Source: Gallionellaceae bacterium
GTDB lineage: Bacteria; Pseudomonadota; Gammaproteobacteria; Burkholderiales; Gallionellaceae
Direction of reading: 5' to 3'
Assembly: GCA_043755195.1 (NCBI GenBank)
Contig: JAYUTK010000001.1
Location: 2,875 to 66,874, forward strand
DNA length: 64,000 bases
In this document: piece after piece, positions 6,501-42,135 of the stretch
Numbering within the stretch: position 1 is the first letter of the stretch
Layout: the number at the start of each line of letters is the position of its first letter
Made by a program: the position numbers and the translations under genes
The notes under the pieces: generated by a model
What the model saw: only the letters and a program-made list of their open reading frames with translations
Told to the model about the DNA's origin: nothing
Database searches by the model: none

Positions 6501-6578
6501 GCGCAAACAGGACGTTGTTATTTGCTAGTTGCCAGCATATACTCGACACGAGAACGCCTATTTGCTGAACTGGATACT

Positions 6579-7523
6579 ATGACAAGCTCTGCTCCGATAG
6601 AAAAACAATCGCCATTTAGCCTGATGTCAGATATAGATCTGCGCTTAAGGATGCTTTTTTCCAGCCTGGCGACTTCGCAGTTGACCGACTTTCCCGGTCG
6701 CACCACCAGAATATGCAAGGATTTGCAAAGCGCCTGTGAGATGGATGCGGATGCGGCCTTAGGCATGTTGGCGCTGGGTAGTGAAGGGCGCTACACCATT
6801 ACTCATCCTTTGCATGTGGCCATTTTGTGCGAATTGATTGCGAAAAAAAAGGGTATAGCTGACGAGTCGAGATTATCTCTGCTTGCGGCTGCCTTAACCA
6901 GCAATATTGCCATGATAGAGTTGCAAGATACCTTGCAAAAGCAGCAAGCCCCGTTGACTGACGAGCAATCAGAAAAAATTCACCAGCATCCCAAGAGAGC
7001 AGCCGACATGTTGCGCGAAGCCGGGGTGCAAGATAGCGTTTGGATTAACACCGTGCAGAACCACCATGAAAGGCAGGATGGCAAGGGCTATCCCGGCGCA
7101 TTGAGCGGGGACGATGTTTCTCTGCTGGTGCGGATTGAGTCGTTGGCCGATACCTATAGCGCACTGATTTCCCCGCGCAACTATCGAGTGGTAAAATTTA
7201 CGCGGGATGCGCTATGCGACACTTTCCTCAAGCGCGGCGCTGCGATTGATGAATCGCTCCCCAATTTTTTTATCAAGGAACTGGGCGTGTTTCCTCCCGG
7301 TTCTTTTGTCAAATTGCAAAACGGCGAGACGGCGGTTGTGGTTAGACGTGGAGCAAATGCCATGTCGCCACAGGTGCAAAGCATAGTCAGCACTAAGGGC
7401 ACGCCTCTGCCCGTGCCGCTGTTGCGCGACAGCGGGCAGGATGCTTATGCTATACGTGAAATAACGCCGCCCAGCAAAGGTATTTCCATTAATCGCCCAT
7501 TGCTTTGGGGTTATAAAGCATAA
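6579..7523 (+). CDS. HD-GYP domain protein with degenerate HD motif
   Basis: HHERQDGKGYPG motif; LTSNIAM where the HD dyad is expected; ATG 6579 preferred over the ORF-track start 6522. Confidence 0.85.
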   Translation: MTSSAPIEKQSPFSLMSDIDLRLRMLFSSLATSQLTDFPGRTTRICKDLQSACEMDADAALGMLALGSEGRYTITHPLHVAILCELIAKKKGIADESRLSLLAAALTSNIAMIELQDTLQKQQAPLTDEQSEKIHQHPKRAADMLREAGVQDSVWINTVQNHHERQDGKGYPGALSGDDVSLLVRIESLADTYSALISPRNYRVVKFTRDALCDTFLKRGAAIDESLPNFFIKELGVFPPGSFVKLQNGETAVVVRRGANAMSPQVQSIVSTKGTPLPVPLLRDSGQDAYAIREITPPSKGISINRPLLWGYKA

Positions 7524-7696: not shown

Positions 7697-9055
7697 ATGG
7701 CGAAAATAAAAACAATCTACAGTTGTACTGAATGCGGGGGACAAGTGCCAAAATGGCAAGGTCAATGTCCACATTGCACGGCGTGGAATACGCTGGTTGA
7801 AAGCATTGCAGAATCCGCCCCCAGCGGCAAAAACCGCTACAGCGCGCTGACTACAACCGGCAAGGTGCAGACCTTGGCCGAAGTGGGCGCAGAAGAAGTG
7901 CCGCGCACGCCTACGGGCATCGTCGAGTTCGACCGTGTGTTGGGCGGTGGGCTGGTCAGCGGCGGCGTGGTGTTGATCGGCGGCGATCCCGGCATAGGAA
8001 AATCCACCTTGTTGTTGCAAACGCTGGCGCATCTCTCCAGCCAACAAAAAGTGCTGTACGTAAGCGGCGAAGAATCAGCGCAACAAATCGCACTGCGCGC
8101 CAAGCGTTTAGCACTCGACGCGCGCGGCATGCACTTGCTGGCAGAAATTCAACTGGAAAAAATACAAGCAATCATCGCCCAAGAAAAGCCGGACGTGGTG
8201 GTGATTGATTCCATTCAGACCGTGTATTCCGAGCAGCTCACCTCCGCCCCCGGCTCGGTGGCGCAAGTGCGCGAATGTGCGGCGCAACTCACACGTTTGG
8301 CCAAGACCAGCGCCGTGACCATGATATTGGTCGGCCATGTCACCAAGGAAGGCACGCTAGCCGGGCCGCGTGTGTTGGAACACATCGTGGATACCGTGCT
8401 GTATTTCGAGGGTGACACGCATTCCAGTTTCCGTTTAATCCGCGCATTCAAAAATCGCTTTGGTGCAGTGAACGAGTTGGGCGTATTCGCCATGACTGAA
8501 AAAGGTCTGCGCGAAGTCAGCAACCCTTCCGCATTATTTTTATCGCAGCATGGCGCGCAAGTGCCCGGATCGTGTGTGATGGTGACACAGGAAGGCACAC
8601 GCCCCTTGCTGGTGGAAATTCAAGCCTTGCTCGATGATTCGCATTCTCCCAGCCCGCGCCGCCTGTCATTGGGTCTGGAACAAAACCGCCTGGCGATGTT
8701 GCTGGCCGTGCTGCATCGTCACGCAGGCATCGCTTGCTTTGATCAGGATGTATTCATCAATGCCGTTGGCGGCGTAAAAATCACCGAGCCGGGTGCTGAT
8801 TTGGCGGTGTTGTTGGCTATCGTGTCATCGTTACGCAACAAACCGTTGCCAGAAAAAATGGTGGTGTTTGGTGAGGTGGGTTTAGCAGGTGAAGTACGCC
8901 CGGTACAGCGCGGTCAAGAACGTCTGAAAGAAGCCGCCAAACTGGGTTTTACTCACGCCATCATCCCCAAGGCCAATGCGCCTAAGCAAAAAATCGCAGG
9001 CATGGAAATCATTGCGGTGGAACGGGTAGAAGATGCAGTGGCGAAGATGCGTTAA
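7697..9055 (+). CDS. radA: DNA repair protein RadA/Sms
   Basis: C4 zinc finger CTECG...CPHC, Walker A GDPGIGKST, KNRFG motif, Lon-like C-terminus. Confidence 0.98.
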   Translation: MAKIKTIYSCTECGGQVPKWQGQCPHCTAWNTLVESIAESAPSGKNRYSALTTTGKVQTLAEVGAEEVPRTPTGIVEFDRVLGGGLVSGGVVLIGGDPGIGKSTLLLQTLAHLSSQQKVLYVSGEESAQQIALRAKRLALDARGMHLLAEIQLEKIQAIIAQEKPDVVVIDSIQTVYSEQLTSAPGSVAQVRECAAQLTRLAKTSAVTMILVGHVTKEGTLAGPRVLEHIVDTVLYFEGDTHSSFRLIRAFKNRFGAVNELGVFAMTEKGLREVSNPSALFLSQHGAQVPGSCVMVTQEGTRPLLVEIQALLDDSHSPSPRRLSLGLEQNRLAMLLAVLHRHAGIACFDQDVFINAVGGVKITEPGADLAVLLAIVSSLRNKPLPEKMVVFGEVGLAGEVRPVQRGQERLKEAAKLGFTHAIIPKANAPKQKIAGMEIIAVERVEDAVAKMR

Positions 9056-9145
9056 ACCCAGATTTTCCATTAGCGTACGTAGCGAGGGCGATCAAGTGAT
9101 TGAAGATGTGCGAAAAAAATAAAAAATGTTCGGAGGGCGTAGCCA

Positions 9146-9292
9146 GGGTAAATTTGTTCTCCAAATAATCGTAGGGTGGGCAGACAGCTTTATCGTCTGC
9201 CCACGCGGATTGGTAACCGCGTGGGCACAAAAACGTGCCCACCCTACATTTATTGATTTTAAACATAATTACCTGGAGAACAAATTTACCGT
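9146..9292. mobile_element. Nested MITE with 17-bp IR (GGTAAATTTGTTCTCCA) and 11-bp flanking direct repeat
   Basis: IR 9147-9163 and 9274-9290; direct repeat gggcgtagcca at 9135-9145 and 9293-9303. Confidence 0.7.
9171..9247. repeat. GTAG-type REP doublet (RAYT-family-like)
   Basis: gtagggtgggca ... tgcccaccctac with internal palindromes. Confidence 0.75.
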
Positions 9293-9392
9293 GGGCGTAG
9301 CCACTCTACGTTGACAATTAGACCCAATTACGTCATTCCTGCGAAGGTGGGAATGAGGTAATTCTGCCTAATGGAAAATTAGGGTTCAACCT

Positions 9393-9504
9393 CAATGCTG
9401 TTCACTTAGGCAAATTTCCGTTCGCCCTGAGCTTGTCGAAGGGCTCCAGTTGCGAAGCTAGTGGTTCGACAAGCTCACCACGAACGGTTAAGTGAACAGC
9501 ATTG
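9393..9504. mobile_element. 112-bp MITE, 16-bp TIR CAATGCTGTTCACTTA, 10-bp target duplication
   Basis: Perfect TIRs; TSD ggttcaacct at 9383-9392 and 9505-9514; identical to the reverse complement of 40102-40214 except one indel. Confidence 0.92.
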
Positions 9505-9642: not shown

Positions 9643-10359
9643 CTATGCGTGCGGTGATTCACGCGAAGCGGCGGGCATTCCATCATCAGCATCCTTCCCA
9701 GAAAACCAATTACGCCAGACTACCACCCGGTATGCGAGCAGTGCGAGCAATACAAGGATATAAGGAAGAGAACGCAGGTCACCCGGCTTGGACATCCACC
9801 ACCAATGGGCAATAGTCAACAACGCAATCAGGTAGATCAGCCGATGAATACGCCGCCAGTTGCGTTTAAGCATGCGTATCATCTCATCGGGGGAAGTGAT
9901 GGCAAGCAACGTGAGCAACGCCAAGCTGAGTACGCCCGCCACAATATACGGCTTTTCATATAGATCGTCGGCAAGCGCATCCCAATCCCAGCTTAGATCA
10001 AATTCCAAATAAACCCCAGCATGAGCAACCCCATAAAAAAAACAAACCAGACCCAACATACGCCGCATGTGTATCATAAAGTTCCAATCCGGCAGGCGTT
10101 TACCCCAGCGCCAGCCGAGTAGCCGGAACAGGCGCAGCAACATCCTGCGCCCCGGCGTAATGAACAATGTCAGAATGAGCAATATCATCGCCCAGCGACC
10201 CGTTACCCGCTCCAAGGTTTCTAGGCCGTTAACACCTAAATTTTTATTGATGTAATCCAGCGCCAAAATTATTGCAGGCAGCAGAGTCAGCATGAGCACA
10301 GCCCACCATAGCGCTCGATAGTATTGGAAGGGCCACGTTTTTAGGGGGGGGTTAAACAT
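9643..10359 (-). CDS. msrQ: Methionine sulfoxide reductase heme-binding membrane subunit (MsrQ/YedZ)
   Basis: TGRWA...RRMLGL...HAGVY...KPYIVAG...WRRIHRLIY...H ferric-reductase-like TM motifs; follows msrP. Confidence 0.9.
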   Translation of the reverse strand: MFNPPLKTWPFQYYRALWWAVLMLTLLPAIILALDYINKNLGVNGLETLERVTGRWAMILLILTLFITPGRRMLLRLFRLLGWRWGKRLPDWNFMIHMRRMLGLVCFFYGVAHAGVYLEFDLSWDWDALADDLYEKPYIVAGVLSLALLTLLAITSPDEMIRMLKRNWRRIHRLIYLIALLTIAHWWWMSKPGDLRSLPYILVLLALLAYRVVVWRNWFSGKDADDGMPAASRESPHA

Positions 10360-10416
10360 AAAGCAGCATAGATCAAGTGCTGGTATTTGTCAGCGTAATA
10401 ATCCGCATTCTACGTT

Positions 10417-11340
10417 TTAAAATTGCAACAGCGGGTCTATGCCTGCATAAAGATGTGCCACCTCTTCGGCATAGCCATTAAAGGGCAATGTTGGGCGCTT
10501 GCGTAACTCACCGATGCGATTCTCGCGTTTCTGTATCCAGCGCGGGTGCGGCACTTCTGGATTAACATTGCCATAAAACCCATACTCGGCAGGAGCAATT
10601 TTATTCCAGCTGGTTTGCGGCTGCTCACGCAAAAAACGAATATGGGTAATGGCCTTGGCGCTCTTGAAGCCATATTTCCACGGCAACACAATACGCAACG
10701 GTGCGCCGTTCTGCTTGGGCAGGGTGTTACCGTACAGCCCGGTTGCGACAAAAGCCAGCGGGTGCATGGCTTCATCCAGGCGCAGCCCTTCTCGATAAGG
10801 CCATTCCAAACTGCCGCCACGCTGACCTATCATTTCTTTGGAACGATGCAGACTAACAAACTCCACATATTTAGCTTGTGCTGTCGGGCGCGCCATTTCT
10901 ATCAAATGGCATAAGGGAAATCCGTTCCAGGGAATGACCATGCTCCAGCCTTCGACACAGCGCAAACGATAAATACGCTCCTCTGAAGGAAATTTTTTCA
11001 GAATGTCTTCTATGCCTATCGTAATCGGTTTGGCGACTTCACCTTCTATCACTACGTTCCAAGGCGAGGTTGTCAACTCTTGCGCGAGTATGCGTACCGC
11101 TTCTTTGTTGGTGGAAAATTCGTAGTAATTATTATAGAAAGTAATTTCTTCAAGCGTGTTGGGTTTTTCACCGGCAGCTTTAAGCGTGTCGGGATTTTTA
11201 AGCAAGGCACAAGCCGGAAAGGCCTGACGATCTACCCAACCTGCCCCCAGCAAAGCGGCAGCAGAGGCAATAAAAAGACGCCGCCCCCGGTAAACTTCCG
11301 GGGGCGTCACGTCGTTTTCAGTCAGGTGCTTGCTCGCCAC
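10417..11340 (-). CDS. msrP: Methionine sulfoxide reductase molybdo-catalytic subunit (MsrP/YedY)
   Basis: Tat motif RRLFI, YNNYYEF, Mo-ligand Cys in RLRCVEGWSM, PWKYGFKSAKAI, NPEVPHPRW. Confidence 0.95.
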   Translation of the reverse strand: MASKHLTENDVTPPEVYRGRRLFIASAAALLGAGWVDRQAFPACALLKNPDTLKAAGEKPNTLEEITFYNNYYEFSTNKEAVRILAQELTTSPWNVVIEGEVAKPITIGIEDILKKFPSEERIYRLRCVEGWSMVIPWNGFPLCHLIEMARPTAQAKYVEFVSLHRSKEMIGQRGGSLEWPYREGLRLDEAMHPLAFVATGLYGNTLPKQNGAPLRIVLPWKYGFKSAKAITHIRFLREQPQTSWNKIAPAEYGFYGNVNPEVPHPRWIQKRENRIGELRKRPTLPFNGYAEEVAHLYAGIDPLLQF

Positions 11341-11349
11341 ACGCCTTCC

Positions 11350-12390
11350 TTAAGGTTTGGGAAGATCAGGCAGGCTGACGGCCTGAAAAGGAGAAGTGAG
11401 TGCATGCAGGAATGATACCAGTGAATCCTTTTCTGCTTGGGTCAATCCTAGCTCCTTAATGCTGGGGGACAAGTCAGTCTTGATTACCCCGCCTTTGTTG
11501 TAATGTTCGACTACCTCCGTTAACGTATGGGCGGCACCATCGTGGAAATAGGGCGCATTGGTGTTGATGTCACGTAATGTTGGGGTCTTGAATGCGCCGC
11601 GCATGGATTTAACCGGCTTTTGCGCGTAACGCCCCATATCTGGTTCAGGCGCGCCATATGAGGGTAAGCCTACATTGTGGAAACCATTATCGGTAAAGTT
11701 TGGGGCAGAGTGGCACTCGGAACAATGGGCTTTTCCAGCAAACAATTTGAAGCCATCTACTTGTTGTGGCGTCATGGCTTTGGCGTCCCCCTTTACCCAA
11801 CGATCAAAGGGGGAGTTGTTGGAAATGGCGGTGCGCTCGAAAGAAGCCATAGCTTTGGACAAGGTCGCTGCGCTGATGTCCTCACCAGGGTAAGCACGAG
11901 CAAACAACATCTTATATCCTGCATTACCATTCAGCCATTCGAACAGGCGCTTGATGTTCATGTTCATTTCAACAGTAGCTTCCATTGGCCCCATGGCTTG
12001 ATCTTCCAGCGACTTCTTACGCCCATCCCACATCTGTATGGTGTTATAGGCGGTATTGATAATGGTGGGTGAGGCGCGTCCCAGCACCATGCTCTTCACG
12101 CCCTTGGCCGTGGCCTGACCGTCTGACCAGCCCAAGCTAGGATTATGGCAATCGCTGCAACTCAGGTTGCCATCGCCGGAAAGACGTGGGTCGAAATAAA
12201 GCATCTTGCCCAGCGCAACGCGATCTGCGTTTGGTTCGTTATCCGCCGGGAAGGGCACCTTATCCGGTAATAACCACTCCTTAAGGCTGGCATGGCCAGG
12301 TTGAAAAGTGTATAAATTATCATCGGCTGCCTGAACATTAAGTGCTGCAATTACCAGTATGTAACTGATCATTATTTTCAGAATACTCAT
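11350..12390 (-). CDS. Diheme enzyme of the bCcP/MauG superfamily, MauG-like
   Basis: Two CxxCH (CSDCH, CSECH), MWDGR, FKTPTLR...PYFHDG...VVEHYN with Tyr at the heme-2 ligand position; signal peptide. Confidence 0.92.
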   Translation of the reverse strand: MSILKIMISYILVIAALNVQAADDNLYTFQPGHASLKEWLLPDKVPFPADNEPNADRVALGKMLYFDPRLSGDGNLSCSDCHNPSLGWSDGQATAKGVKSMVLGRASPTIINTAYNTIQMWDGRKKSLEDQAMGPMEATVEMNMNIKRLFEWLNGNAGYKMLFARAYPGEDISAATLSKAMASFERTAISNNSPFDRWVKGDAKAMTPQQVDGFKLFAGKAHCSECHSAPNFTDNGFHNVGLPSYGAPEPDMGRYAQKPVKSMRGAFKTPTLRDINTNAPYFHDGAAHTLTEVVEHYNKGGVIKTDLSPSIKELGLTQAEKDSLVSFLHALTSPFQAVSLPDLPKP

Positions 12391-12421
12391 CTTCTTCTCC
12401 TCTTAGATTGGTGGTTGGTGG

Positions 12422-13438
12422 TTAATTTTGTGGCGGACGCAAGGTGTTGATATACATAATGGCGGAATCAATCTGAATGTCGGATAGTGTGCCTCCCCAT
12501 GCCGGCATATTTTCAGAGCGGCCTACCGCTGCGCTTCCTTCAGTAATGATCGTTCTCATATACTCATTGGGCAGGCGACTTTTGGTGAGGTTGACTGGTT
12601 TGCTGGAGAGCGACTGTGCTAGCGCGCCATCACCCTGCCCCGTGTCGCCATGACAGGGAACACAATTATCCTTGAACACGGCAGCCCCTTCTTTTGCACT
12701 GGCTTTAGTCGAAAGGGGGGCAGAATCTTTCTGAACTGCTGGACGCAGAGTGTTCACGTAGAGAATAACCGAATCAATCTCTGCTTCTGTCAGCGCTCCG
12801 CCCCAAGTCGGCATTCTGGGCGAGCGGCCTACCGCATCACCACCCAAGGTAATGATGGTACGCAGATAGCTGTCTGGCGCGCGACTTTGGGTCAGGTTGA
12901 CTGGCTTGGGGTTCAAACGGGAAGCCATACGCCCGTCACCCATCGCCTCCATGCCGTGGCACAACGAGCAACGGCTTAGAAAAACAGTCCGTCCGATTTT
13001 GGCCGATGGCTTGGTTTCCTTTGCAGCACTCCATGCAATTTTGAGCGCGCCCTCGGTGTCCTTACGCAAAAATGAAACAAACATGGTCACCGAATCCATC
13101 TGGGTAACGGTAAGCTCATCGCCCCACGGTGGCATCATCGGGCTAATGTCGGCAAAGTGCGAGCCTTCTGTAATAGCACGGCGCAATGATTCATCATCAA
13201 AAGTAACCCGCGGCTCCAACAGATTAGTGGCAGGGTGTTCTTTCACCGATAGCGCCAGTGCGCCCTCGCCCATGCCATCGCTACCGTGGCACAGCGAGCA
13301 CCGTTCCTGAAATATAGCGGCACCATAGCCCATACAAGGCATCGCTTCTACGCCGCAATACTCCACCGAATCGGCCGACCCCTGCAACGGCAACGCGAGA
13401 AGTAATATACTTGAGAACCACCTACGGGCGTTCATCAA
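12422..13438 (-). CDS. Periplasmic triheme cytochrome c (three class-I domains)
   Basis: CSLCH, CSLCH, CVPCH, each followed by MP(P/T/A)WG Met ligand; signal peptide. Confidence 0.9.
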   Translation of the reverse strand: MMNARRWFSSILLLALPLQGSADSVEYCGVEAMPCMGYGAAIFQERCSLCHGSDGMGEGALALSVKEHPATNLLEPRVTFDDESLRRAITEGSHFADISPMMPPWGDELTVTQMDSVTMFVSFLRKDTEGALKIAWSAAKETKPSAKIGRTVFLSRCSLCHGMEAMGDGRMASRLNPKPVNLTQSRAPDSYLRTIITLGGDAVGRSPRMPTWGGALTEAEIDSVILYVNTLRPAVQKDSAPLSTKASAKEGAAVFKDNCVPCHGDTGQGDGALAQSLSSKPVNLTKSRLPNEYMRTIITEGSAAVGRSENMPAWGGTLSDIQIDSAIMYINTLRPPQN

Positions 13439-13756
13439 TTATTCCACCTGAACAGTTAACTGCATGGAGGGATGGATGGCGCACTCTATATCAATTTGCC
13501 CCGCCGTATCGAACACAATACTTTTTGATTCGCCATTGCCGTAGGAACCCAAGTCAAATGTCTTGCTCGCCGACAGACTAAAAATATTATGGAAGAAAGG
13601 GTCGGCATTGGTAAACTTTACCGAATCACCTTTTTTTAACTTAAGCTCCTTCACCGAAAATGTTTTGTTCTTTTGTATCAATTCAACTTCTGCTCCGACC
13701 GCATGCAACGATGCCAGCATGGCGACAGAGGCAGTGATAAAGGCGATACGTTTCAT
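13439..13756 (-). CDS. Amicyanin-like cupredoxin
   Basis: Signal peptide; type-1 Cu ligands HNIF ... CAIHPSM (C-x2-H-x2-M loop). Confidence 0.88.
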   Translation of the reverse strand: MKRIAFITASVAMLASLHAVGAEVELIQKNKTFSVKELKLKKGDSVKFTNADPFFHNIFSLSASKTFDLGSYGNGESKSIVFDTAGQIDIECAIHPSMQLTVQVE

Positions 13757-13785
13757 TTTTGCTCTCCTTATAGTGGGTTAAACAT

Positions 13786-15420
13786 TTAATATTTAAAATT
13801 CTTCATTGCTGAGACAAGCTCCTTTGCCGCCTTGTCTAGACTCTGAGATTCCCCGCCCAAGCGCGTTGCCTGATTGCGATTATCGCTGGCCAAGGTGGCG
13901 AGGTGGCTTGCTTCGCCAGCAATACTGGAAGTCGCTTTTTCCTGTTCGCTGACCAGGCTGACAATATCACGCATGGATTGACTAATGGCTTGGATGCGCT
14001 CGTTACTGACCTGAGTTTGATTGACGGCACCGCTCAATTGTTTAATGTTGCTTTCGGTCTTTTCAAGTACGTGATCTATGGCCGCCACCGTATCATTGAC
14101 GCTCTTGTCAATATTGACTACCAGCATGGATATTTCGTTAACGGCTGTACCAGTATTGCCTGCAAGTTTACGCACCTCGTCTGCCACCACAGCGAAACCG
14201 CGCCCTTGCTCGCCCGCCCGCGCCGCTTCAATGGCAGCATTCAATGCCAGCAAATTGGTCTGATCGGCAATGCCTTTAATAGTCTTGGTAATAGATTGAA
14301 TCTGGCCGGCCAAACTGGATAGTTCCCGGCTTTTTTCTGCGGTGCTTCGCATTTCTGTTTGGAAAGTCTGAAAGCTCTCTACCGTTTGCAGCAGCTCTTC
14401 ACTGGCTACCTGAGCAACGCTGGACGCGGCCGTTGCATTATCACCAGCCACACCCAGCAACTTGAATGCGTTAGATGAAGCATTGCTGAGCGAACCCGTT
14501 TGCGAATAGATCGAACCCGAACTTTCGTCCAAGCGCCCTGCTGCAGCACCCGCTCCCAACGCGCCTTCGGCAATAGCACTGGAATTATTAGAAACATCGC
14601 TTGCTGCATTCGCCACGCTTTGCACGATATTACGCAAGTTGCCGACGGTGAGGTTAATCGCTGTCTGAATTCTACCAATTTCATCCCGGCTGGCATTTTT
14701 CACATCTAAGGTAACAGTCAGGTCACCATTGGCTAACGCGACCATCGCACCTTCAATTTTACCCATGGCTCGACTCATGGAACGCGCCCATAACCATGCC
14801 ATTAACATACCTAAACCTGCGCCGAGAATACAGATCACGCCAAGAAACATCATTTGCTTCTTTGATTCCAGTTTGACGCGAGCCATTTCCGATAGCGCCA
14901 GTTCTTGGCTATGCTGAGTTACGCTCTGCGCCAAATCAGCAATGGTTTTAAATTCACTCGCAGCAACAGAATATAATTGCAGAGCACGTTCATCTTCATT
15001 GGCACGCCCTACACTGACGATTTCCAACTGCTTGGGGCGCAGTGCGGCCATCTTTTCCGCCAGTGATGTAACGTCACTATCATTTTCAAATACCTCTTTT
15101 AATGTGGCTAGGTGTTCGTCTATGCTGGCACCCGCACGTATCGAAGCAATAGCAGCAGCACGAATAGCCCCGGATTCATCAGCCGCAATCAGGGCTTGAA
15201 TATTACGATCCATTTCCACAATGCCGCGCTGTGTCGTGGTGGCGGATTCCACGCGGTGAGTGGCTTGGGTAGCAGCTTGCTCAGCCACACCGCTTTGATG
15301 CAGCATGATAAAAACGCTCAGCGCCAATATCAAGCTCATCACCGCAACCATCCCGCCAAACATGCTTAATATTTTGGTGCGCAAACGCATGTTGGAACAC
15401 ATGGACAAAATATTCTTCAT
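13786..15420 (-). CDS. Methyl-accepting chemotaxis protein (2 TM, periplasmic helical sensor, HAMP)
   Basis: [37 protein letters not shown] signalling hairpin; two hydrophobic helices. Confidence 0.96.
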
Positions 15421-15649
15421 AATTTACCTTTTTACGCTCCCCAGTCGTTCAAAGAAGCTCAATGAACCACATCATCGTATCTATGCAATCCAGGTCAAAT
15501 TTATTGTTAGTTTCAAACGTGATGACCAAGCGCAAGAGGCAGAGGCCTTAATGAGGTTAACGGCAAGAAGAAGGTAAACTTTAACAAAATAATCTATCAG
15601 GAATAGGTCTGGCTTAACCGAATGACACAACCAAACAACCCCCAATGAA

Positions 15650-15675
15650 AAACGGACACCCGAAGGTGTCCGTTT
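15650..15675 (-). terminator. Rho-independent terminator of the porin gene
   Basis: On the minus strand aaacggacacc-ttcg-ggtgtccgttt followed by Ts. Confidence 0.85.
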
Positions 15676-31146: not shown

Positions 31147-31377
31147 ATGCCTAAACGCTCAAGCAGACTAGATATGAATCAACTCGCCAAGCGCATTGTA
31201 GATGAAGCGACTGGCGAGGACGAGAAAACTTCACCACCACCGCAAAAGAATCAAGCCGCCGTGGAGCTTGGGCGGCTTGGGGGGAAGAAAGGCGGGAAGG
31301 CTAGGGCTGAAAACCTTACGCCGGAGCAGCGGTCAGAAATTGCTAAAAAGGCCGCTAAATCACGCTGGGATAGATAA
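31147..31377 (+). CDS. Small basic protein with KGG-like motif (IS passenger)
   Basis: AAVELGRLGGKKGGKARAENLTPEQRSEIAKKAAKSRW; ATG 31147 (alternative 31123). Confidence 0.75.
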   Translation: MPKRSSRLDMNQLAKRIVDEATGEDEKTSPPPQKNQAAVELGRLGGKKGGKARAENLTPEQRSEIAKKAAKSRWDR

Positions 31378-32439
31378 TCATCCTCCAACTGGAAGGTACA
31401 TTGTTATCTGCACAGGCTCTTTCCCGTAATGGAGAGCTACTTTTGATCTAAGCTCGTTAATTGTGTGGCAATCTTTCGCCATACCAACAATCTCAAAGCA
31501 TCTTGAAACCAACTGACGCGCACCGTAGTTCTCCGTAAGCTGACTATGCCAGCGTACCCCTGCCGGTGGCTTGTTATCCTTTAGGTAAATTGCGACATCA
31601 GGGTCAAGAGTTTCATAAATCAATTCAATAACCAGCTTTCCCCACCATTTTGGCCTGCTATGCAAAGACCCTTTCCATCCGGTAAGCCTGCCGAACTCTT
31701 CCCACAATTCATCTGGAAATGTTTTTTCCCATGCTCGAAGCTCGTCAGCTATAAAAGCCTTCAATTTAATTTGCAATGCATCACCCTCGCGCACAAATTG
31801 ATAACCAGTGGCCTCATCAATAAGAGCGATTAATCCAATTTTAGCGCATGAAGATAGAAGAATAGCGCAAGACATTGCATTCTCCTTTTGCCGCTCTGTC
31901 TTGAGCGCATCTGACGTAAAGGCCGCCACATACCCCTGACAAACTTCAAGGAATATTTCAGCCGTCAACCCACTACCTTTGAATTGTGTGCCCGGAATAG
32001 AAAAAGACAGAATTTCCCCCAGCACTTTTTCCTTGTTAATAAACAGCTTAAGCGCTTCTACACCTATGTAATCCCCCAGGTTCCCAGAATCAACTTTTGC
32101 TATTGCCTGAACTGCTGATCTCATGCTTATTACCCGTTCACCGGTATTAAGAACATAGCAATCAACCGATGCGCCACCGAGTTGCAATTCTCCTTTGTGC
32201 TTCGCAAAAGTTTCTACTGATTCCGCAGGAATTAGTACTATTTTATTTGACGGCGGCATAAAGTCATGCGGGGATAAATCAATTCCACGTTCCGAGGCTA
32301 ATTCGAGCAATTGCTTGTGCCATTTTTGCGGGATATTTCCTTTCTTAACCCAATACGCAATAGTGCTTTGCCCTTTACTAATCAAAGCGGCAAGTTCAGT
32401 TTGATTGTTAAACTTGGAAATAATCTTTTTAACGTCCAT
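31378..32439 (-). CDS. P63C-domain protein with N-terminal Cro/CI-like HTH
   Basis: QTELAALISKGQSTIAYW HTH; GELQLGG..DCYVLNTGERVIS; ALIDEATGYQ, WEKTFPDE, WWGKL P63C-type motifs. Confidence 0.8.
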   Translation of the reverse strand: MDVKKIISKFNNQTELAALISKGQSTIAYWVKKGNIPQKWHKQLLELASERGIDLSPHDFMPPSNKIVLIPAESVETFAKHKGELQLGGASVDCYVLNTGERVISMRSAVQAIAKVDSGNLGDYIGVEALKLFINKEKVLGEILSFSIPGTQFKGSGLTAEIFLEVCQGYVAAFTSDALKTERQKENAMSCAILLSSCAKIGLIALIDEATGYQFVREGDALQIKLKAFIADELRAWEKTFPDELWEEFGRLTGWKGSLHSRPKWWGKLVIELIYETLDPDVAIYLKDNKPPAGVRWHSQLTENYGARQLVSRCFEIVGMAKDCHTINELRSKVALHYGKEPVQITMYLPVGG

Positions 32440-32552
32440 ACGATCACCTTTTGATAAATTGATAAAACAGATAGTAAACTATCAAAATAACTGTTGTCAA
32501 TATCAAATTTATCAGGCATAATTTCAACCTGAACGATGCTTAAGGGGTTGCC

Positions 32553-33434
32553 ATGAACGTCCTGCCAATTGAAAAACGCGCACAAATCATTAACCTGCTG
32601 GTTGAAGGCAACTCCATGCGCGCCACTTCCCGCCTTGCTGATTGCTCAATAAACACCGTTACCAAGCTGCTTATAGACGTTGGCATGGCCTGTAGCGAGT
32701 ATCAGGACAAGGCCATGCGCAACCTTACTTGCAAGCGCATCCAGTGCGATGAAATATGGGCATTCTGCTACTGCAAGGAAAAGAATGTTGCGCCTGAGCA
32801 TGAGGGGATACTTGGCTTTGGCGATGTTTGGACTTGGACTGCGATAGATGCCGATACCAAACTTGTTCCGTCTTTCATGGTGGGCAAGCGTGACGCAGAA
32901 TATGCGCAAGGCTTCATTGAGGATTTAGCCTCTCGCTTGGCTAATCGCGTCCAACTGACTACAGACGGCCACAAGGCATATTTGACAGCGGTAGAAGATG
33001 CTTTTGGGCGAGATATAGACTACTCCATGCTAGTGAAGCACTACGGCAATCCAGCGGGTGAAATGCAAGGCCAGAAGCGTTATAGCCCTTCCAGTTTTGT
33101 GAGCGCAGAAAAGCGTCATGTTGCTGGCAACCCAGATGTTAAGCACGTTTCCACCAGCTATGTAGAGCGCCAGAATTTAACCATGCGCATGTCCATGCGC
33201 CGCTTTACTCGCCTGACCAACGGCTTTAGCAAAAAGGTTGAAAACTTGGAACACATGGTCGCGCTGCACTTCATGCACTACAACTTTGTGCGCATCCATA
33301 AAACATTGCACACAACTCCCGCAATGGCGGCAGGGGTAAGTGATAAACTATGGAGCATTGCTGATATTGCAGCGCTTGTTCCTGAGCCTGTAGCCGCAAA
33401 GCGTGGCAGCTACAAAAATAAAAAATCAAACTAA
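32553..33434 (+). CDS. IS1-family DDE transposase (single ORF)
   Basis: HTH SMRATSRLADCSINTV; IQCDEIW, TTDGHKAY, VERQNLTMRMSMRRFTR. Confidence 0.93.
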   Translation: MNVLPIEKRAQIINLLVEGNSMRATSRLADCSINTVTKLLIDVGMACSEYQDKAMRNLTCKRIQCDEIWAFCYCKEKNVAPEHEGILGFGDVWTWTAIDADTKLVPSFMVGKRDAEYAQGFIEDLASRLANRVQLTTDGHKAYLTAVEDAFGRDIDYSMLVKHYGNPAGEMQGQKRYSPSSFVSAEKRHVAGNPDVKHVSTSYVERQNLTMRMSMRRFTRLTNGFSKKVENLEHMVALHFMHYNFVRIHKTLHTTPAMAAGVSDKLWSIADIAALVPEPVAAKRGSYKNKKSN

Positions 33435-33687
33435 GTGTGCTGACGCACAGAATCGTGGTAAATTTCCGTATAGCATCATTCACTACGCATTGCAATTTTT
33501 TAAATGCTAGCCATCTTGACTTGACCAACAATTAGCTCTACTCTGCGCGCGTTTATGTATTAACAGACATTTTGAATTAAAGTATCTGCGGATTATTCCG
33601 ATAACGATAGTAAGAACTTTGTGTGGTAGTGGCTGTCATATGTCTGTGCCGCTGATTTTGGTGGAAAAATAGTCCTTGGAGGGAGTT

Positions 33688-33726
33688 ATGTTTAATATCG
33701 CTAAAGAAGAAGGATGGGATGGTTGA
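33688..33726 (+). CDS. Putative 12-aa peptide MFNIAKEEGWDG
   Basis: Strong RBS ggagggag, ATG...TGA, ending 3 nt before the DUF4760 start. Confidence 0.4.
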   Translation: MFNIAKEEGWDG

Positions 33727-33729
33727 GTT

Positions 33730-34239
33730 ATGGATGCACAAGAGCCAGTAAAAATAATTCTCTGGTTCGGTGAGTCAATAGGCTTCTGGATACAAACAGG
33801 AGCCGTTTTTTTATCCGCTGTTGCAGCTATATTTGTTATTCATCATAACGGGGTGTTGGCTAGAAGAAGATCAACGATTGACCATATAATTCACCAAAAA
33901 AGCAATGAGGCCATACTTAATGCGATTCATATCGTGTATAGATTGCACGATGATAACGTGCAATTCAGCCAGTATTTGGATAAACAGGATTCTGATGAAT
34001 TCAAGGCGATATTAAAAGTATTAAATAATCATGAATTCATTGCAGTTGGTATTCGCCGCAAGGCATTTGAAGAGCGTATTTATAAGGAACTTCAGTACTC
34101 TAATTTTGTGAAAGTGTATAATTCTGCCGCTGGGATAATTGCCGAAATAAGAAAAAAACAAAATAGTCATACTTTATTCCAAGAATTTGAGTGGCTAATA
34201 AAAAGATGGGAAAAATGCCCACTCAAGAGACGCACATAA
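33730..34239 (+). CDS. DUF4760-like protein (IS passenger)
   Basis: N-terminal TM, RRSTID, VLNNHEFIAVGIRRKAFEE..YK, FQEFEWL. Confidence 0.75.
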   Translation: MDAQEPVKIILWFGESIGFWIQTGAVFLSAVAAIFVIHHNGVLARRRSTIDHIIHQKSNEAILNAIHIVYRLHDDNVQFSQYLDKQDSDEFKAILKVLNNHEFIAVGIRRKAFEERIYKELQYSNFVKVYNSAAGIIAEIRKKQNSHTLFQEFEWLIKRWEKCPLKRRT

Positions 34240-34252
34240 AATCTGAACATAT

Positions 34253-34277
34253 ATCCCGCTTCGGCGGGATTTTTTAT
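34253..34277 (+). terminator. Rho-independent terminator just inside the right TIR
   Basis: atcccgc-ttcg-gcgggat followed by a T-tract. Confidence 0.85.
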
Positions 34278-34318
34278 TTATATTTCAAACTGAGACACTA
34301 CCAAAACGCTCTATCGCG

Positions 34319-34346
34319 TTGACACGATGAGTCAAGTCCGTATAAT
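34319..34346 (+). promoter_or_regulatory. Sigma70 promoter of the tRNA operon
   Basis: TTGACA-N16-TATAAT followed by a GC-rich discriminator gcgcgcgtcc. Confidence 0.88.
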
Positions 34347-34369
34347 GCGCGCGTCCTTAAATGGGATGT

Positions 34370-34445
34370 GGGTCGTTAGCTCAGCCGGTAGAGCAGCGGA
34401 CTTTTAATCCGTTGGTCGCCAGTTCGAATCTGGCACGACCTACCA
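34370..34445 (+). tRNA. tRNA-Lys(TTT)
   Basis: 76 nt; acceptor GGGTCGT/ACGACCT, anticodon loop CTTTTAA, TTCGAAT, encoded CCA. Confidence 0.97.
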
Positions 34446-34488
34446 CAGCGTAAAAAGTTTTATCAGTCTGTTCTGCATCAGCATCATC

Positions 34489-34564
34489 GCCGCTTTAGCT
34501 CAGTTGGTAGAGCAACCGCCTTGTAAGCGGTAGGTCGTCAGTTCGAATCCGACAAGCGGCACCA
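34489..34564 (+). tRNA. tRNA-Thr(TGT)
   Basis: 76 nt; acceptor GCCGCTT/AAGCGGC, anticodon loop CTTGTAA, TTCGAAT, encoded CCA. Confidence 0.97.
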
Positions 34565-34570
34565 ATATAC

Positions 34571-34599
34571 AAAAGGCTTGCAGCGATGCAGGCCTTTTT
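34571..34599 (+). terminator. Terminator after the tRNA operon
   Basis: aaaaggcttgca-gcga-tgcaggcctttt. Confidence 0.8.
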
Positions 34600-34722
34600 C
34601 ACGTCTAGCAGATTCGTATCTGTATAGGCGCAGTTCAAATTTTGTCCGGTTTTGCGGTATCATTTCCCATCACCACCGATCTTAGCCTACAGTTTCCAAT
34701 TCCCGATCAAAGAGATATTTAC

Positions 34723-34774
34723 GTAGGGCGGGTCACATCCGCCAACGAACAACGGCGGGTGTGACCCGCCCTAC
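34723..34774. repeat. GTAG-type REP doublet
   Basis: gtagggcgggtcaca ... tgtgacccgccctac; half copy at about 44397-44415. Confidence 0.75.
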
Positions 34775-34792
34775 AAATTACTTTACCTTTGA

Positions 34793-34972
34793 ACCCAGAT
34801 TTTCCATTAGCATTCTACTGCGGACGCTCAATAGGCCGAATCTGCACGAAAAAAATCAAAAAATGTTCTGTCAACGTAGAATGACTACGCCCTCCGAACA
34901 TTTTTTGATTTTTTTCGCACATCTTCAACCTCTTGATCGCCCTCGCTACGAGTGCTAATGGAAAATCTGGGT
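34793..34972. mobile_element. 180-bp MITE with ACCCAGATTTTCCATTAGCA termini
   Basis: Perfect 20-bp TIRs; flanked on both sides by TGA (34790-34792, 34973-34975). Confidence 0.85.
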
Positions 34973-35101
34973 TGAAGTGGAAATAAAATGATTGGCAATA
35001 ACATCCACCTTCCCATAACAAATATGGGATTGCCCAACGTCGGGTTCTATATGCTTGCGCTCTATTTCGTGATGTTGATCCACCCTGATTAAGGAGGCTC
35101 T

Positions 35102-36187
35102 GTGAAACGACTCATACTGTGCTGTGACGGAACATGGAACAAGGCCGATCAAGAAGATAACGGCACCCCTTGCCCAACTAATGTCGTCAAGATCAGTTAC
35201 CAGATCGCCAAGCGCGACGGTGATATTCCGCAAATTATTTACTATGACCAAGGAGTGGGTAGCGGAAATGCTTTGGACCGACTGTCGGGCGGAGCATTCG
35301 GGCAGGGGTTGGAGGACAACATCCACGACGCTTATCGCTTCCTGATTGCGAACTACGAGTATGGCGACGAGTTGTATTTATTCGGCTTCAGCCGCGGCGC
35401 GTTCACTGCCCGCAGCATCGCGGGCATGATCCGAAAATGCGGTGTACTGAGGCGCGAATTCGTCAAGCATTATCGCGATGCAATTGCGCTGTACCGCTCG
35501 GAACACCACCCTGCCGACCCCGCCGCTATGAAATTCAGACAGGGTTATTCTGTTTGCAGAGGGGGCGACATCAAGATCAGATTCATCGGGGTTTGGGATA
35601 CAGTTGGCGCGCTCGGCATTCCACTACGCGGCCTGCGATGGCTTACGAGTGATCTGTACGAGTTTCACGACACCGAACTGAGCGGCGCAGTCGAGTATGC
35701 CTACCATGCTCTCGCCATTGATGAACGCCGTGCGCCGTTTGAACCGACGCTCTGGATGTACAAGCCCAAGCCCTGGCAAACAATCGAACAAAAGTGGTTC
35801 TGCGGTGTACATAGCGATGTTGGCGGCGGTTACCCCGAACACGGGCTGTCCGATATCACGCTCGAATGGATGATAGGCAGAGCGCAGGGTGCGGGGCTTA
35901 AATTCGATAGCGCAGCGATGCTTGCCCACGCACTTAAACCCGATCCGTGCGCCTTGTTACATAACTCAAAAACTGGCTTGTATCGGCTGACCACGGGTTC
36001 AGATCGCTCAATAGGCTGGAGCATCAACACCGCGAATGCGTCTGTCGAGGCCAAGTACCAGAACGACCCAACACAATCCCTGCATGACAGCGTACTGACC
36101 CGCTGGGACAACGACACCGCATACCGCCCACCTGCGCTTAGAGATTACTTCAAAAGAATCAGCGACCGCCGGGGTAATGGAAAGTAG
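35102..36187 (+). CDS. DUF2235 (Tle1-like alpha/beta-hydrolase) protein
   Basis: LILCCDGTWN, YYDQGVG, LFGFSRGAFTAR, IGVWDTVGALG, HALAIDERR, WFCGVHSDVGGG. Confidence 0.92.
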   Translation: MKRLILCCDGTWNKADQEDNGTPCPTNVVKISYQIAKRDGDIPQIIYYDQGVGSGNALDRLSGGAFGQGLEDNIHDAYRFLIANYEYGDELYLFGFSRGAFTARSIAGMIRKCGVLRREFVKHYRDAIALYRSEHHPADPAAMKFRQGYSVCRGGDIKIRFIGVWDTVGALGIPLRGLRWLTSDLYEFHDTELSGAVEYAYHALAIDERRAPFEPTLWMYKPKPWQTIEQKWFCGVHSDVGGGYPEHGLSDITLEWMIGRAQGAGLKFDSAAMLAHALKPDPCALLHNSKTGLYRLTTGSDRSIGWSINTANASVEAKYQNDPTQSLHDSVLTRWDNDTAYRPPALRDYFKRISDRRGNGK

Positions 36188-36189
36188 GG

Positions 36190-37206
36190 TTACCCCTTCT
36201 TGGCTAATCTCGATGAATGACAAATAGCCCAATAGTAGCCTGCAAATATCAGTAAAAAAGCGGCGAGCATCACATTTTCTCGTACCTTGAAATACCAACC
36301 CGCCAAACCAATCAAGCCCATTAAAATTGAAATCATCATTATCAGCAGCACGGTTTTTGAAACAGACAGGCCAGCTTGCAAAAACAAGTGGTGTAAATGT
36401 TCGCTGTCTGCCGAAAACGGGCTGCGTCTCTTCAAGATGCGGCGCACCATGCAACGCACCGTATCCATCAACGGGATTGCAAATATCCACACCATGGTGA
36501 CAGGAGTCACGACCTTACCTAGATCAACAGCAAACCACACCAGTGTAAAACCCAGCATCATGCTGCCCGCATCGCCCATAAATATTGACGCTTTTTTGCG
36601 CCAGGGTGAGCGCATATTAAAAATTAAAAAGCCGAGCACGGCTGCTACCAGAATAAAAATGAGGGACGCATGCAAAGCCATGCCAAAAAATAAAGCGATA
36701 GCTCCCAGAAAAAATAATATCGTTAATGAAACCCCGCCCGCCAGTCCGTCTATGCCATCAATCATATTGAGTGCATTAATGACCCCCAGAACAGAAAATA
36801 CGGTGAATGGAATCGCCCAGCCATACAGGTGGACGCTGCCCCCACCGAATAAATTACCCAAATCCTCTATGACTACACCCCCCCATGAGGTCATCAGGAG
36901 CGCGGCAAAAATTTGCGCAATGAACCGACTGCGTGTGCTCAAATCGTGCAAATCATCCAGCAAACCTACCAGCACCAAAATAATCATTGCGGCAAATAAT
37001 GCATAAAACTGATCCAGTGACTGCCCGGAGCTCAGCGCAGCTAACATAAATGCAATAAATATTGCCAGGCCCCCGATTAAGGGGGGCGCTCCAACATGAT
37101 TTTTACGACCTACAGGCGTATCCACCAAGCCCAATTTTATTGCGGGTCGTCTCAGAAAAAGAATCAGCACGATGGTTAGGCAGAACGCAGTCACATAGCT
37201 AAACAA
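36190..37206 (-). CDS. wecA: WecA/MraY-family undecaprenyl-phosphate HexNAc-1-P transferase
   Basis: GLLDD, INALNMIDGIDGLAGG, FMGDAGSMMLG, DSEHLHH. Confidence 0.9.
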   Translation of the reverse strand: MFSYVTAFCLTIVLILFLRRPAIKLGLVDTPVGRKNHVGAPPLIGGLAIFIAFMLAALSSGQSLDQFYALFAAMIILVLVGLLDDLHDLSTRSRFIAQIFAALLMTSWGGVVIEDLGNLFGGGSVHLYGWAIPFTVFSVLGVINALNMIDGIDGLAGGVSLTILFFLGAIALFFGMALHASLIFILVAAVLGFLIFNMRSPWRKKASIFMGDAGSMMLGFTLVWFAVDLGKVVTPVTMVWIFAIPLMDTVRCMVRRILKRRSPFSADSEHLHHLFLQAGLSVSKTVLLIMMISILMGLIGLAGWYFKVRENVMLAAFLLIFAGYYWAICHSSRLAKKG

Positions 37207-41845: not shown

Positions 41846-42135
41846 TACCAAGGCTCCCGAGGTTTCATCTTTTGACTTCCTGAGGCAACCTTTTTTTCCG
41901 CTGCCTTCACCGCAAGGGAATTCCGTGGCTCAACCTGAAGTTCGGCATCCAGCGCCATCAGCACAGTAAGAAGTTGGTCTATGGACATCCTCTCAGGATG
42001 ATTTTCTATCACCGAGATACGCTCCTGGGACAAGCCTATCTTCTGGCCCAGATCAATTTGCGACCAACCCTTGGCCTTCCTTAATTGCTTAAGGATGGGG
42101 CCCAACTGGCCTGTGGTGCGAACATTGTTAGCCAT
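41845..42135 (-). CDS. hipB: HipB-like XRE-HTH antitoxin
   Basis: LKQLRKAKGWSQIDLGQKIGLSQERISVIE. Confidence 0.9.
   Translation of the reverse strand: MANNVRTTGQLGPILKQLRKAKGWSQIDLGQKIGLSQERISVIENHPERMSIDQLLTVLMALDAELQVEPRNSLAVKAAEKKVASGSQKMKPREPW

Follow-up and report, generated by a model that had tools for sequence, protein, structure and literature searches.

In the 64-kb window analysed here (the whole stretch of Gallionellaceae DNA, contig JAYUTK010000001.1), six genes on the minus strand between positions 9643 and 15420 encode a methyl-accepting chemotaxis protein (MCP), a cupredoxin, a cytochrome c, a MauG-type diheme enzyme and the methionine sulfoxide reductase pair MsrP and MsrQ. 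Comparison with related loci shows that the MauG-like enzyme, the cupredoxin, the cytochrome c and a dedicated MCP are the core of a conserved module, to which msrPQ and SCO1/SenC genes are accessories. As the same families are neighbours in most of the related loci, the arrangement is far beyond chance. The preferred reading, held tentatively and with somewhat more doubt than belief, is that the six genes are transcribed as a unit and encode a periplasmic redox module with a chemosensory function, which handles hydrogen peroxide (H2O2). All of the components belong to known families; the module itself is undescribed. A full-text literature search found no description of it, the matches being Leptospira genes under a methylamine label, and a published survey of the CCP_MauG superfamily does not mention cupredoxin in its main text, nor was a description of such a cluster noted there.

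Relatives of the diheme protein were collected by scanning one genome per species, which returned 80 loci, and a locus was taken to have full context if at least 4 kb were present on both sides. The nearest locus, in a metagenome-assembled genome (MAG) of the Gallionellaceae, encodes a diheme protein 92% identical to that of the window and has the same six genes in the same order. Starting from the MauG-like protein, the 50 full-context loci contain the cupredoxin in 49 cases, cytochrome c in 47, the MCP in 43, MsrP in 15 and MsrQ in 14, almost always on the same strand. Starting from the cupredoxin, a MauG-like gene is found in 40 of 44 full-context loci, together with cytochrome c (37), MCP (33) and MsrPQ (11), and the exceptions are the most distant members. 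The MCP sensor motif described below serves as a third independent starting point and gives the same association. Across all fetched loci, 162 distinct MauG-like sequences are accompanied by the cupredoxin, and 111 by the cupredoxin, cytochrome c and MCP together, 29 of these 111 also having MsrP. The combination is therefore not unique to this strain, since this neighbourhood survey recovers the four core families across many taxa.

Gene order has been shuffled among lineages while gene content has been retained. The order MCP-MauG-like-cupredoxin-cytochrome c is common in Gammaproteobacteria, Rhodoferax lacus has cupredoxin-cytochrome c-MauG-like-MsrP-MsrQ-MCP, and pathogenic Leptospira have MauG-like-cupredoxin-cytochrome c-MCP. 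In Skermanella, where the genes lie on a plasmid, and in Bradyrhizobium-like Alphaproteobacteria, the order is MauG-like-cupredoxin-MCP. In a few loci, genes for the copper chaperone SCO1/SenC are inserted. As a negative control, relatives with the same tyrosine ligand and similar identity in Planctomycetes and some Chromatiales have none of these neighbours, which indicates that the linkage is a property of a single clade rather than of the superfamily at large. Clustering of the other neighbouring open reading frames (ORFs) revealed no further strongly conserved family, in an analysis where antisense ORFs and merged clusters hid even the cupredoxin and MsrPQ groups.

The receptor is one indication that the module is sensory. 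The MCP gene (13786-15420, minus strand) encodes a 544-amino acid (aa) protein with two transmembrane segments, a helical periplasmic sensor domain (approximately residues 39-192), a HAMP domain and a signalling domain, the last two scoring above their Pfam cut-offs (HAMP, 35.1 against 25 bits; MCPsignal, 128.6 against 34.6 bits). The match of the sensor region to 4HB_MCP_1 is weak in the window protein (16 bits against a cut-off of 27), but this model is passed by MCPs at the same position elsewhere, in Leptospira (51.7 bits), in locus L046 (33.4 bits) and, as a precomputed match, in Rhodoferax lacus. A single-sequence AlphaFold model of the sensor domain is all-helical, at a predicted local distance difference test (pLDDT) value of 49.8 that is too poor for a fold search. 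Periplasmic sensor domains are normally the fastest-evolving part of an MCP. The sensor domain of this family is homologous in 65 loci (E<1e-6). In addition, the whole collection was searched with a hand-made degenerate DNA pattern for a sensor-domain motif, exact matches being counted. All 36 matches lie within MCPs, and each of the 31 that could be evaluated adjoins a MauG-like gene or the cupredoxin; in the other five, which show no module, the sequence available on the side in question is shorter than 1.3 kb. In the evaluable matches, the sensor-domain family is thus confined to the vicinity of the redox module, and the receptor is its dedicated partner.

The MCP gene is followed head to tail by the genes for the cupredoxin (13439-13756), cytochrome c (12422-13438), the MauG-type enzyme (11350-12390), msrP (10417-11340) and msrQ (9643-10359), all on the minus strand, so that the six co-directional genes described by the sequence-only reading are present. 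From the MCP gene to msrQ, the intergenic gaps are 29, 0 (or 3 with the ATG start of cytochrome c), 31, 9 and 57 bp. The small gaps reported earlier are thus upheld at 0-57 bp, and clear Shine-Dalgarno-like sequences precede five of the six genes but are absent before msrQ. A strong intrinsic terminator of the upstream porin gene (15648..15675, minus strand) consists of the hairpin ACGGACACC-UUCG-GGUGUCCG followed by U5, with a minimum free energy of -41.7 kcal/mol over an 88-nt stretch (z = -4.3 against shuffles), and sets the 5' boundary of the unit. Given the tiny gaps and this terminator, the six genes look like one transcription unit, in agreement with the earlier operon claim. No terminator was detected 3' of msrQ in a folding test (z = 0.29). 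The 590-bp spacer between radA and msrQ is occupied by nested inverted repeats (9051-9504), with arm pairs at 9051/9368, 9143/9268, 9164/9236, 9393/9489 and 9418/9465, and looks like stacked palindromes resembling repetitive extragenic palindromic (REP) sequences or miniature inverted-repeat transposable elements (MITEs).

A promoter-like site of the sigma-28 (FliA) type (15557..15583, minus strand), first spotted by eye and then scored by a consensus scan, is located downstream of the porin terminator and 136 nt ahead of the ATG of the MCP gene. Its sequence, TAAAGTTT-N11-GCCGTTAA, is one mismatch from the consensus TAAAGTTT-N11-GCCGATAA, and in the approximately 2 Mb scanned, the only sites with at most one mismatch are this one and its counterpart in the closest relative (L001). 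Sites with up to three mismatches are enriched upstream of the MCPs of the cluster, at 7 of 80 compared to 0.5% of random 250-bp segments. A general promoter and terminator scan of 9-16 kb gave counts close to chance and was uninformative, and an Rfam scan of the window returned two tRNAs only, neither near the cluster. The sigma-28-like site suggests that the module is produced alongside the motility regulon rather than as a stress-induced defence, and consequently favours a sensory role over that of a stress-induced detoxification operon.

The diheme enzyme (346 aa; PF03150, 190.8 bits) carries a signal peptide, the haem-binding motifs C78xxC81H82 and C223xxC226H227, W121 within the sequence QMWDGR, and Y297. 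Both CxxCH motifs, W121 and Y297 are invariant in 78 of 78 relatives. W121 occupies the position of the inter-haem Trp (Trp93 of MauG) and, together with the conserved Q131 and E141, represents the inter-haem Trp and distal Gln/Glu of the CCP_MauG fold. Y297 aligns with Tyr294 of the Paracoccus-type MauG, in the context EHY in both the window enzyme and the Methylobacterium MauG and LFY in the Paracoccus type, and is predicted to be the sixth ligand of a six-coordinate haem. In the alignment, its counterpart in Geobacter CcpA is the terminal Met (position 297), which we take to be a haem ligand. The window enzyme is also without the distal His of the activation loop. MauG is inactivated by oxidation of Met108, Met114 and Met116, and the window enzyme has Met at all three putative equivalents (136, 142 and 144), of which only Met142 is well conserved.

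The kinship of this enzyme depends on the reference chosen. Among solved structures, Geobacter CcpA is the best match (5.8e-54) and Paracoccus MauG is far weaker (approximately 1e-18), while the MbnH structure 6e1c is a detectable relative (E = 1.3e-35) and BthA matches over a short stretch (E = 2.9e-10). A Foldseek search with the diheme model likewise indicates the CCP/MauG fold, with a TM-score of 0.68 to MacA, a level of comparison that cannot separate MauG from cytochrome c peroxidase (CCP). However, the window enzyme shares 45-47% identity with the genuine Methylobacterium MauG (46.7% over the span compared), whereas the value for Geobacter CcpA across that span is 40%. Furthermore, in a neighbour-joining (NJ) tree with 200 bootstraps, the Methylobacterium MauG falls inside the clade of module members in 97% of replicates and groups with the alphaproteobacterial members in 96.5%, and Paracoccus MauG falls outside the module clade. 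In view of this identity, the aligned Tyr, the invariant ligand set and the tree position, the ranking by solved structures is judged misleading on kinship with MauG. The best NCBIfam match is the MauG equivalog TIGR03791, at 318.2 bits below its cut-off of 443.85, and the MbnH model TIGR04039 is likewise not reached (217.2 bits against 362.85). By ligand set and descent, as read from these alignments, the enzyme is MauG-type, in keeping with its earlier designation, but by curated score and context it is not MauG. Trp199 of Paracoccus MauG was considered as a discriminator and rejected, as the genuine Methylobacterium MauG also has Ala there.

Other diheme proteins in the collection deserve mention in their own right. 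The nearest-relative MAG, VAR_43_metabat_362, encodes another diheme paralogue of the Tyr type (L001:11277-12140), situated 4.6 kb beyond the 3' side of msrQ. This paralogue shows 34% identity and clusters with Paracoccus MauG in the tree, and a second pair of cupredoxin and cytochrome c genes is located on another contig (L128). The 475-aa protein P0042 of Actimicrobium sp. has a tandem duplication of the C-terminal haem domain, including a second THY..GG motif, that may be real or an assembly artefact. It stands without a cupredoxin or MCP, and was rejected as a cytochrome fusion because it duplicates its own C-terminal haem domain.

The cupredoxin (105 aa; Copper-bind, 27.2 bits in Pfam) has the copper ligands H56, C92, H95 and M98, which are invariant in 72-73 of 73 homologues. 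Its ligand loop, C-A-I-H-P-S-M, has the amicyanin length C-x2-H-x2-M and aligns with the amicyanin loop C-T-P-H-P-F-M, which bears out the earlier designation as amicyanin-like in terms of loop length. In kinship, the protein fits MauL better than amicyanin. The amicyanin model TIGR02657 is not reached (29.3 bits against a cut-off of 110.2), and the comparison protein was found on plasmid pLVM1 of Methylobacterium sp. DM1, where a 114-aa cupredoxin-like ORF directly after mauG (L162:9959-10303, plus strand) is missing from the gene table of the plasmid. On the basis of the AM1 mau cluster, we take this ORF to be MauL, which makes it the closest named relative of the module cupredoxin. Profile alignment with hhalign gives a probability of 98.3% (E = 1.9e-14) for Methylobacterium MauL and 96.8% (E = 2.4e-10) for amicyanin. 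Similarly, tblastn matches 192 loci with MauL and 43 with amicyanin, with best E-values against module loci of 5e-12 and 4e-7, respectively. On every measure used, these sequence comparisons place the module cupredoxin closer to MauL than to amicyanin.

MauL is reportedly required in M. extorquens, in a role that is unknown. The accessory proteins listed for methylamine dehydrogenase include it (PMC2474590). Because the cupredoxin matches MauL better than amicyanin, the central pair of the module looks like a counterpart of MauG-MauL. In most loci, the median distance between the cupredoxin and the MauG-like gene is below 150 bp; in the window, the cytochrome c gene intervenes. No Trp or Tyr is invariant among the cupredoxin homologues, the invariant aromatic residues being Phe, and the window protein is without Trp. 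The cupredoxin also matches longer proteins among P0121-P0270, some with 5-9 tandem cupredoxin domains (600-1150 aa) and others of approximately 220-350 aa that carry an unassigned C-terminal region behind a similar cupredoxin. These were considered as fusions of module components and rejected, since they are other architectures.

The class I cytochrome c of the window (338 aa) has three CcoP-like domains, recognized as three Cytochrome_CBB3 stretches, each with a CxxCH and an MPxWG motif. The listed start is TTG, and the true start is probably the ATG one codon on, at 13435. Elsewhere, single-haem partners occur in 43 loci and two-haem partners in 25, and apart from the window only one locus has a partner with three. 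As nearly all partners have one or two haems, the triplication is a peculiarity of this lineage, and the triheme cytochrome of the sequence-only reading, correct for the window, is not a general feature of the module.

MsrP, the periplasmic molybdenum enzyme of the pair, contains an Oxidored_molyb domain (PF00174), the twin-arginine translocation (Tat) signal RRLFI and the motif RCVEGWS, and passes the equivalog cut-off of NF003767 (422.6 bits against 207). The MsrQ-like protein belongs to a family of membrane haem b proteins (Ferric_reduct, 65.6 bits) and falls just short of NF003831 (114.8 bits against 130); an MsrQ-like role is supported by this domain and by its position next to msrP, which is the same in 22 related loci. 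The pair repairs periplasmic methionine sulfoxide. Its membership in the system, as first proposed, is accurate for the window but not as a constant feature, since msrPQ is a frequent accessory in approximately 30% of loci and not part of the core.

From the functions of these families, sensing, detoxification and repair of oxidant damage may be proposed. The soluble proteins all have export signals in the form of signal peptides or a Tat motif, and the sensor domain of the receptor is read as periplasmic. The proteins of the module are co-inherited, and their redox centres are intact in all members, with all four copper ligands and both haem motifs of the enzyme invariant. Electron transfer is also in keeping with the SCO1/SenC copper chaperone genes of some loci. 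Bacterial CCPs accept electrons from both cupredoxins and cytochromes c. MauG and BthA are described as forming a bis-Fe(IV) state with H2O2 (PMC6405878). The His/Tyr diheme enzyme of the module would react with periplasmic H2O2 to reach a high-valent (bis-Fe(IV)-like) state, and would be reset when the Cu(I) cupredoxin donates two electrons, one at a time. The cytochrome c, supplied by the respiratory chain, would then re-reduce the cupredoxin. Much as other receptors recognize periplasmic binding proteins with bound ligand, the sensor domain may read the state of this redox chain, most simply as the balance of oxidized to reduced cupredoxin, and the receptor would bias swimming relative to the balance of oxidant and reductant (oxidant or redox taxis). 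MsrPQ would reduce the methionine sulfoxide that arises as collateral damage in the Met-dependent proteins of the module, at the copper ligand Met98, the Met ligands of the cytochrome haems and the Met residues near the peroxidatic haem. A sensory role is favoured over stress defence by the exclusive sensor-domain family together with the motility-type promoter.

Several observations weigh against this scheme. The identity of the oxidant, the direction of electron flow and the contact between receptor and cupredoxin are all inferred. Approximately 14% of full-context loci have no MCP within 4 kb, some members of the clade stand alone, as in Ca. Tenderia, and the alphaproteobacterial versions are without the cytochrome c. 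Sites resembling sigma-28 promoters are seen in a minority of loci only. Direct redox chemistry in the sensor domain is not suggested by its sequence, as no Cys, His, Met or aromatic residue is conserved there, and a sequence profile search found no solved-structure relative of it. Additionally, a 'Rosetta stone' search of cupredoxin against haem domains found no fusion protein joining the components. Lastly, kinship with a genuine maturation enzyme leaves room for a protein-modifying role.

Such a role, which the sequence-only reading raised for a neighbour as its alternative, would make the locus a maturation system, in which the MauG-type enzyme modifies the cupredoxin, the sensor domain or an unlinked protein by long-range oxidation. 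Precedents exist in MauG (with MauL), which acts on methylamine dehydrogenase, and in MbnH, which acts on MbnP and whose structure is a detectable relative of the window enzyme. The position of the genuine Methylobacterium MauG inside the module clade agrees with this proposal, as do the placement of its MauL gene directly after mauG, which is the commonest arrangement in the module, and the invariance of the Tyr and Trp on which bis-Fe(IV) chemistry depends. However, neither the cupredoxin nor the sensor domain offers an invariant Trp or Tyr as a target, and the complete type-1 copper site of the cupredoxin is that expected of an electron carrier. The co-conserved cytochrome c suggests continuous electron flow and not a one-off event, and an irreversible modification would be poorly suited to a chemoreceptor. 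A maturation system is consequently considered unlikely.

Alternatively, the locus could be a plain operon for periplasmic peroxide reduction or respiration, comprising peroxidase, donors and MsrPQ, with a neighbouring MCP that senses something unrelated. Among solved structures, canonical bacterial CCPs (bCCPs) match best, and their electrons usually come from cupredoxins and c-type cytochromes. Some loci are without the MCP. The His/Tyr enzyme BthA is, moreover, described as still turning over H2O2 (PMC6405878). This account is nonetheless quite improbable, given that the sensor-domain family is found only beside the module in the evaluable matches and is homologous over the 65 loci despite the fast divergence normal for such domains. 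Linkage to the MCP survives the many changes in gene order, the three-way reciprocal linkage conflicts with a chance neighbour, and a motility-type promoter heads the unit.

A function in copper biology is regarded as very unlikely. Here, the cupredoxin, with SCO1/SenC, would report or handle periplasmic copper, the diheme enzyme would oxidize Cu(I), and the MCP would mediate copper taxis. Copper stress does cause periplasmic Met oxidation that is repaired by MsrPQ, and SCO1/SenC genes lie inside some of the loci. The MauG-like MbnH is also tied to copper homeostasis (title of PDB 6e1c). In contrast, few loci contain SCO1, a buried His2CysMet site like that of the cupredoxin typically serves electron transfer and not metal sensing, and no conserved copper efflux or regulator genes were seen nearby in the imperfect clustering of neighbouring ORFs.

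Cryptic methylamine use, in which MauG and an amicyanin-like protein would work for a methylamine dehydrogenase whose genes lie elsewhere in the genome, is suggested by annotations (the NCBI name MauG of the Rhodoferax lacus module protein; PMC13066512, PMC10294975) and by TIGR03791 as the best NCBIfam match, but is barely credible, as the score of 318 is below the cut-off, mau genes are adjacent to one another in genuine clusters, and the partners here are an MCP and msrPQ. The absence of mauAB from the window noted previously is confirmed, and a tblastn search of the window and of the loci collected before this search, for which the MauA, B, D, E, F and J proteins of a genuine mau cluster were the queries, found no homologues. 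In both genuine clusters compared, that of the Methylobacterium plasmid (in the order mauFBEDA-amicyanin-mauJ-mauG) and one with a Paracoccus-type MauG, mauA/mauB and other mau genes are adjacent.

The methylamine label has nevertheless spread through the literature on Leptospira, where Tyr-type diheme genes are assigned to 'methylamine metabolism' (PMC10294975; PMC13066512; PMC7567364). As a co-expression lead for the preferred reading, all four genes of a putative Leptospira interrogans operon, mauG1-petE-cytochrome c-MCP, are down-regulated together with chemotaxis genes in a host-like chamber, and was read by the authors as methylamine utilization (PMC13066512). This operon is matched to the module by gene order and annotation only, its order being the same as in the Leptospira loci examined here. 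A published transcriptome reports that the cluster LIMLP_05250-05265 is repressed approximately four-fold by 1 mM H2O2 and that the Met-type ccp is strongly induced (log2 fold change of 4.76 at 10 uM and 5.8 at 1 mM H2O2). These values were rejected as data on the module because the repressed LIMLP_05260 is a paralogue, with its Tyr at 338; the L. gomenensis module enzyme has Tyr at 291, matching LIMLP_14325. The labels 'MauG', 'methylamine utilisation protein' and 'cytochrome c peroxidase' are attached to module genes, and some have already misled the interpretation of Leptospira transcriptomes (PMC13066512; PMC10294975).

The preferred reading of a chemosensory redox module can be extended to one that joins an enzyme-relay input to the chemoreceptor with the ancestral context of MauG and MauL, a combination that is put forward as rather doubtful. 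The diheme enzyme would capture H2O2 and hand the oxidizing equivalent to a dedicated cupredoxin, whose redox state, possibly including reversible Met oxidation reset by MsrPQ, would be read by a co-evolved receptor domain. If true, the cell would measure oxidant flux against its respiratory electron supply. As a corollary, the MauG/MauL pair of methylotrophs would have been recruited from an older sensory or redox module, and this recruitment would explain the long-unknown role of MauL, as the redox partner of MauG.

Elsewhere in the window, the tRNA-Lys and tRNA-Thr genes (34370-34564) lie within the lowest-GC stretch (31300-36200; GC 0.436) among short regulator-like ORFs, which may be a small integrated element. 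A long minus-strand block (36000-58000) has strongly negative GC skew; judged by eye from the translations, it may be a polysaccharide or glycosyltransferase cluster that includes genes resembling asparagine synthase and HipA (the latter at 40508-41851). The segment 5900-6570, which precedes an HD-domain-like gene (6522-7523), contains several overlapping mid-size ORFs on both strands, one with a transposase-like N-terminus, and may be a decayed insertion sequence.

The closest known systems include the MauG-MauL pair of the Methylobacterium mau cluster (mauFBEDA-amicyanin-mauJ-mauG-mauL-mauMN). Its MauG shares the EHY..GG motif, the inter-haem Trp and the distal Gln/Pro/Glu-Met residues, and mauL directly follows mauG, as the cupredoxin gene does in most module loci. 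The module differs in having no mau genes, its partners being a chemoreceptor, cytochrome c and msrPQ, and the Methylobacterium MauL has Ile at the position of the cupredoxin ligand Met98. Canonical bCCPs (Geobacter CcpA/MacA, Nitrosomonas, Pseudomonas and Paracoccus pantotrophus), for which small copper proteins and c-type cytochromes are the physiological donors, have the same fold at approximately 40% identity and share the two CxxCH motifs, the inter-haem Trp and the distal Gln/Glu with the window enzyme. In the module enzyme, however, the invariant Tyr takes the place of the Met that ligates the high-potential haem of bCCPs, and a dedicated chemoreceptor is present.

Other members of the superfamily resemble the module in part. 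BthA of Burkholderia, as described, has a Tyr-ligated haem, no mau operon and H2O2 turnover, as is proposed for the module (PMC6405878), but it is distant, has Ser in place of the inter-haem Trp and occurs in another genomic context. MbnH-MbnP likewise combines a MauG-family enzyme with a small periplasmic copper protein. In the module, this partner is a classical four-ligand cupredoxin with no conserved Trp to convert, a comparison made without a search for MbnP. The window MsrP resembles that of E. coli MsrPQ (YedYZ) in its score above the equivalog cut-off, its Tat signal and its adjacent MsrQ-like haem b partner; here, msrPQ is in a unit with a chemoreceptor and redox chain, and no regulator of the HprSR type lies close to it.

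That four-helix-bundle receptors can sense through a partner protein is established, as for Tar and Trg, which act with periplasmic binding proteins. These receptors and the haem c receptors (DcrA of Desulfovibrio; GSU0582 and GSU0935 of Geobacter) couple periplasmic input to an MCP, as is proposed here. Unlike the haem c receptors, the sensor domain of the window MCP has no haem motif, and its proposed partners are an enzyme and a cupredoxin encoded alongside, a case for which the full-text literature search returned no example. If the proposal is true, this enzyme-coupled input would be added to the known modes of chemoreceptor sensing, and many motile Proteobacteria, pathogenic Leptospira and some Acidobacteriota would own a dedicated device for navigating peroxide or redox gradients. 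Furthermore, His/Tyr diheme enzymes would gain a physiological setting outside cofactor biosynthesis, together with a testable role for MauL and origin for MauG.

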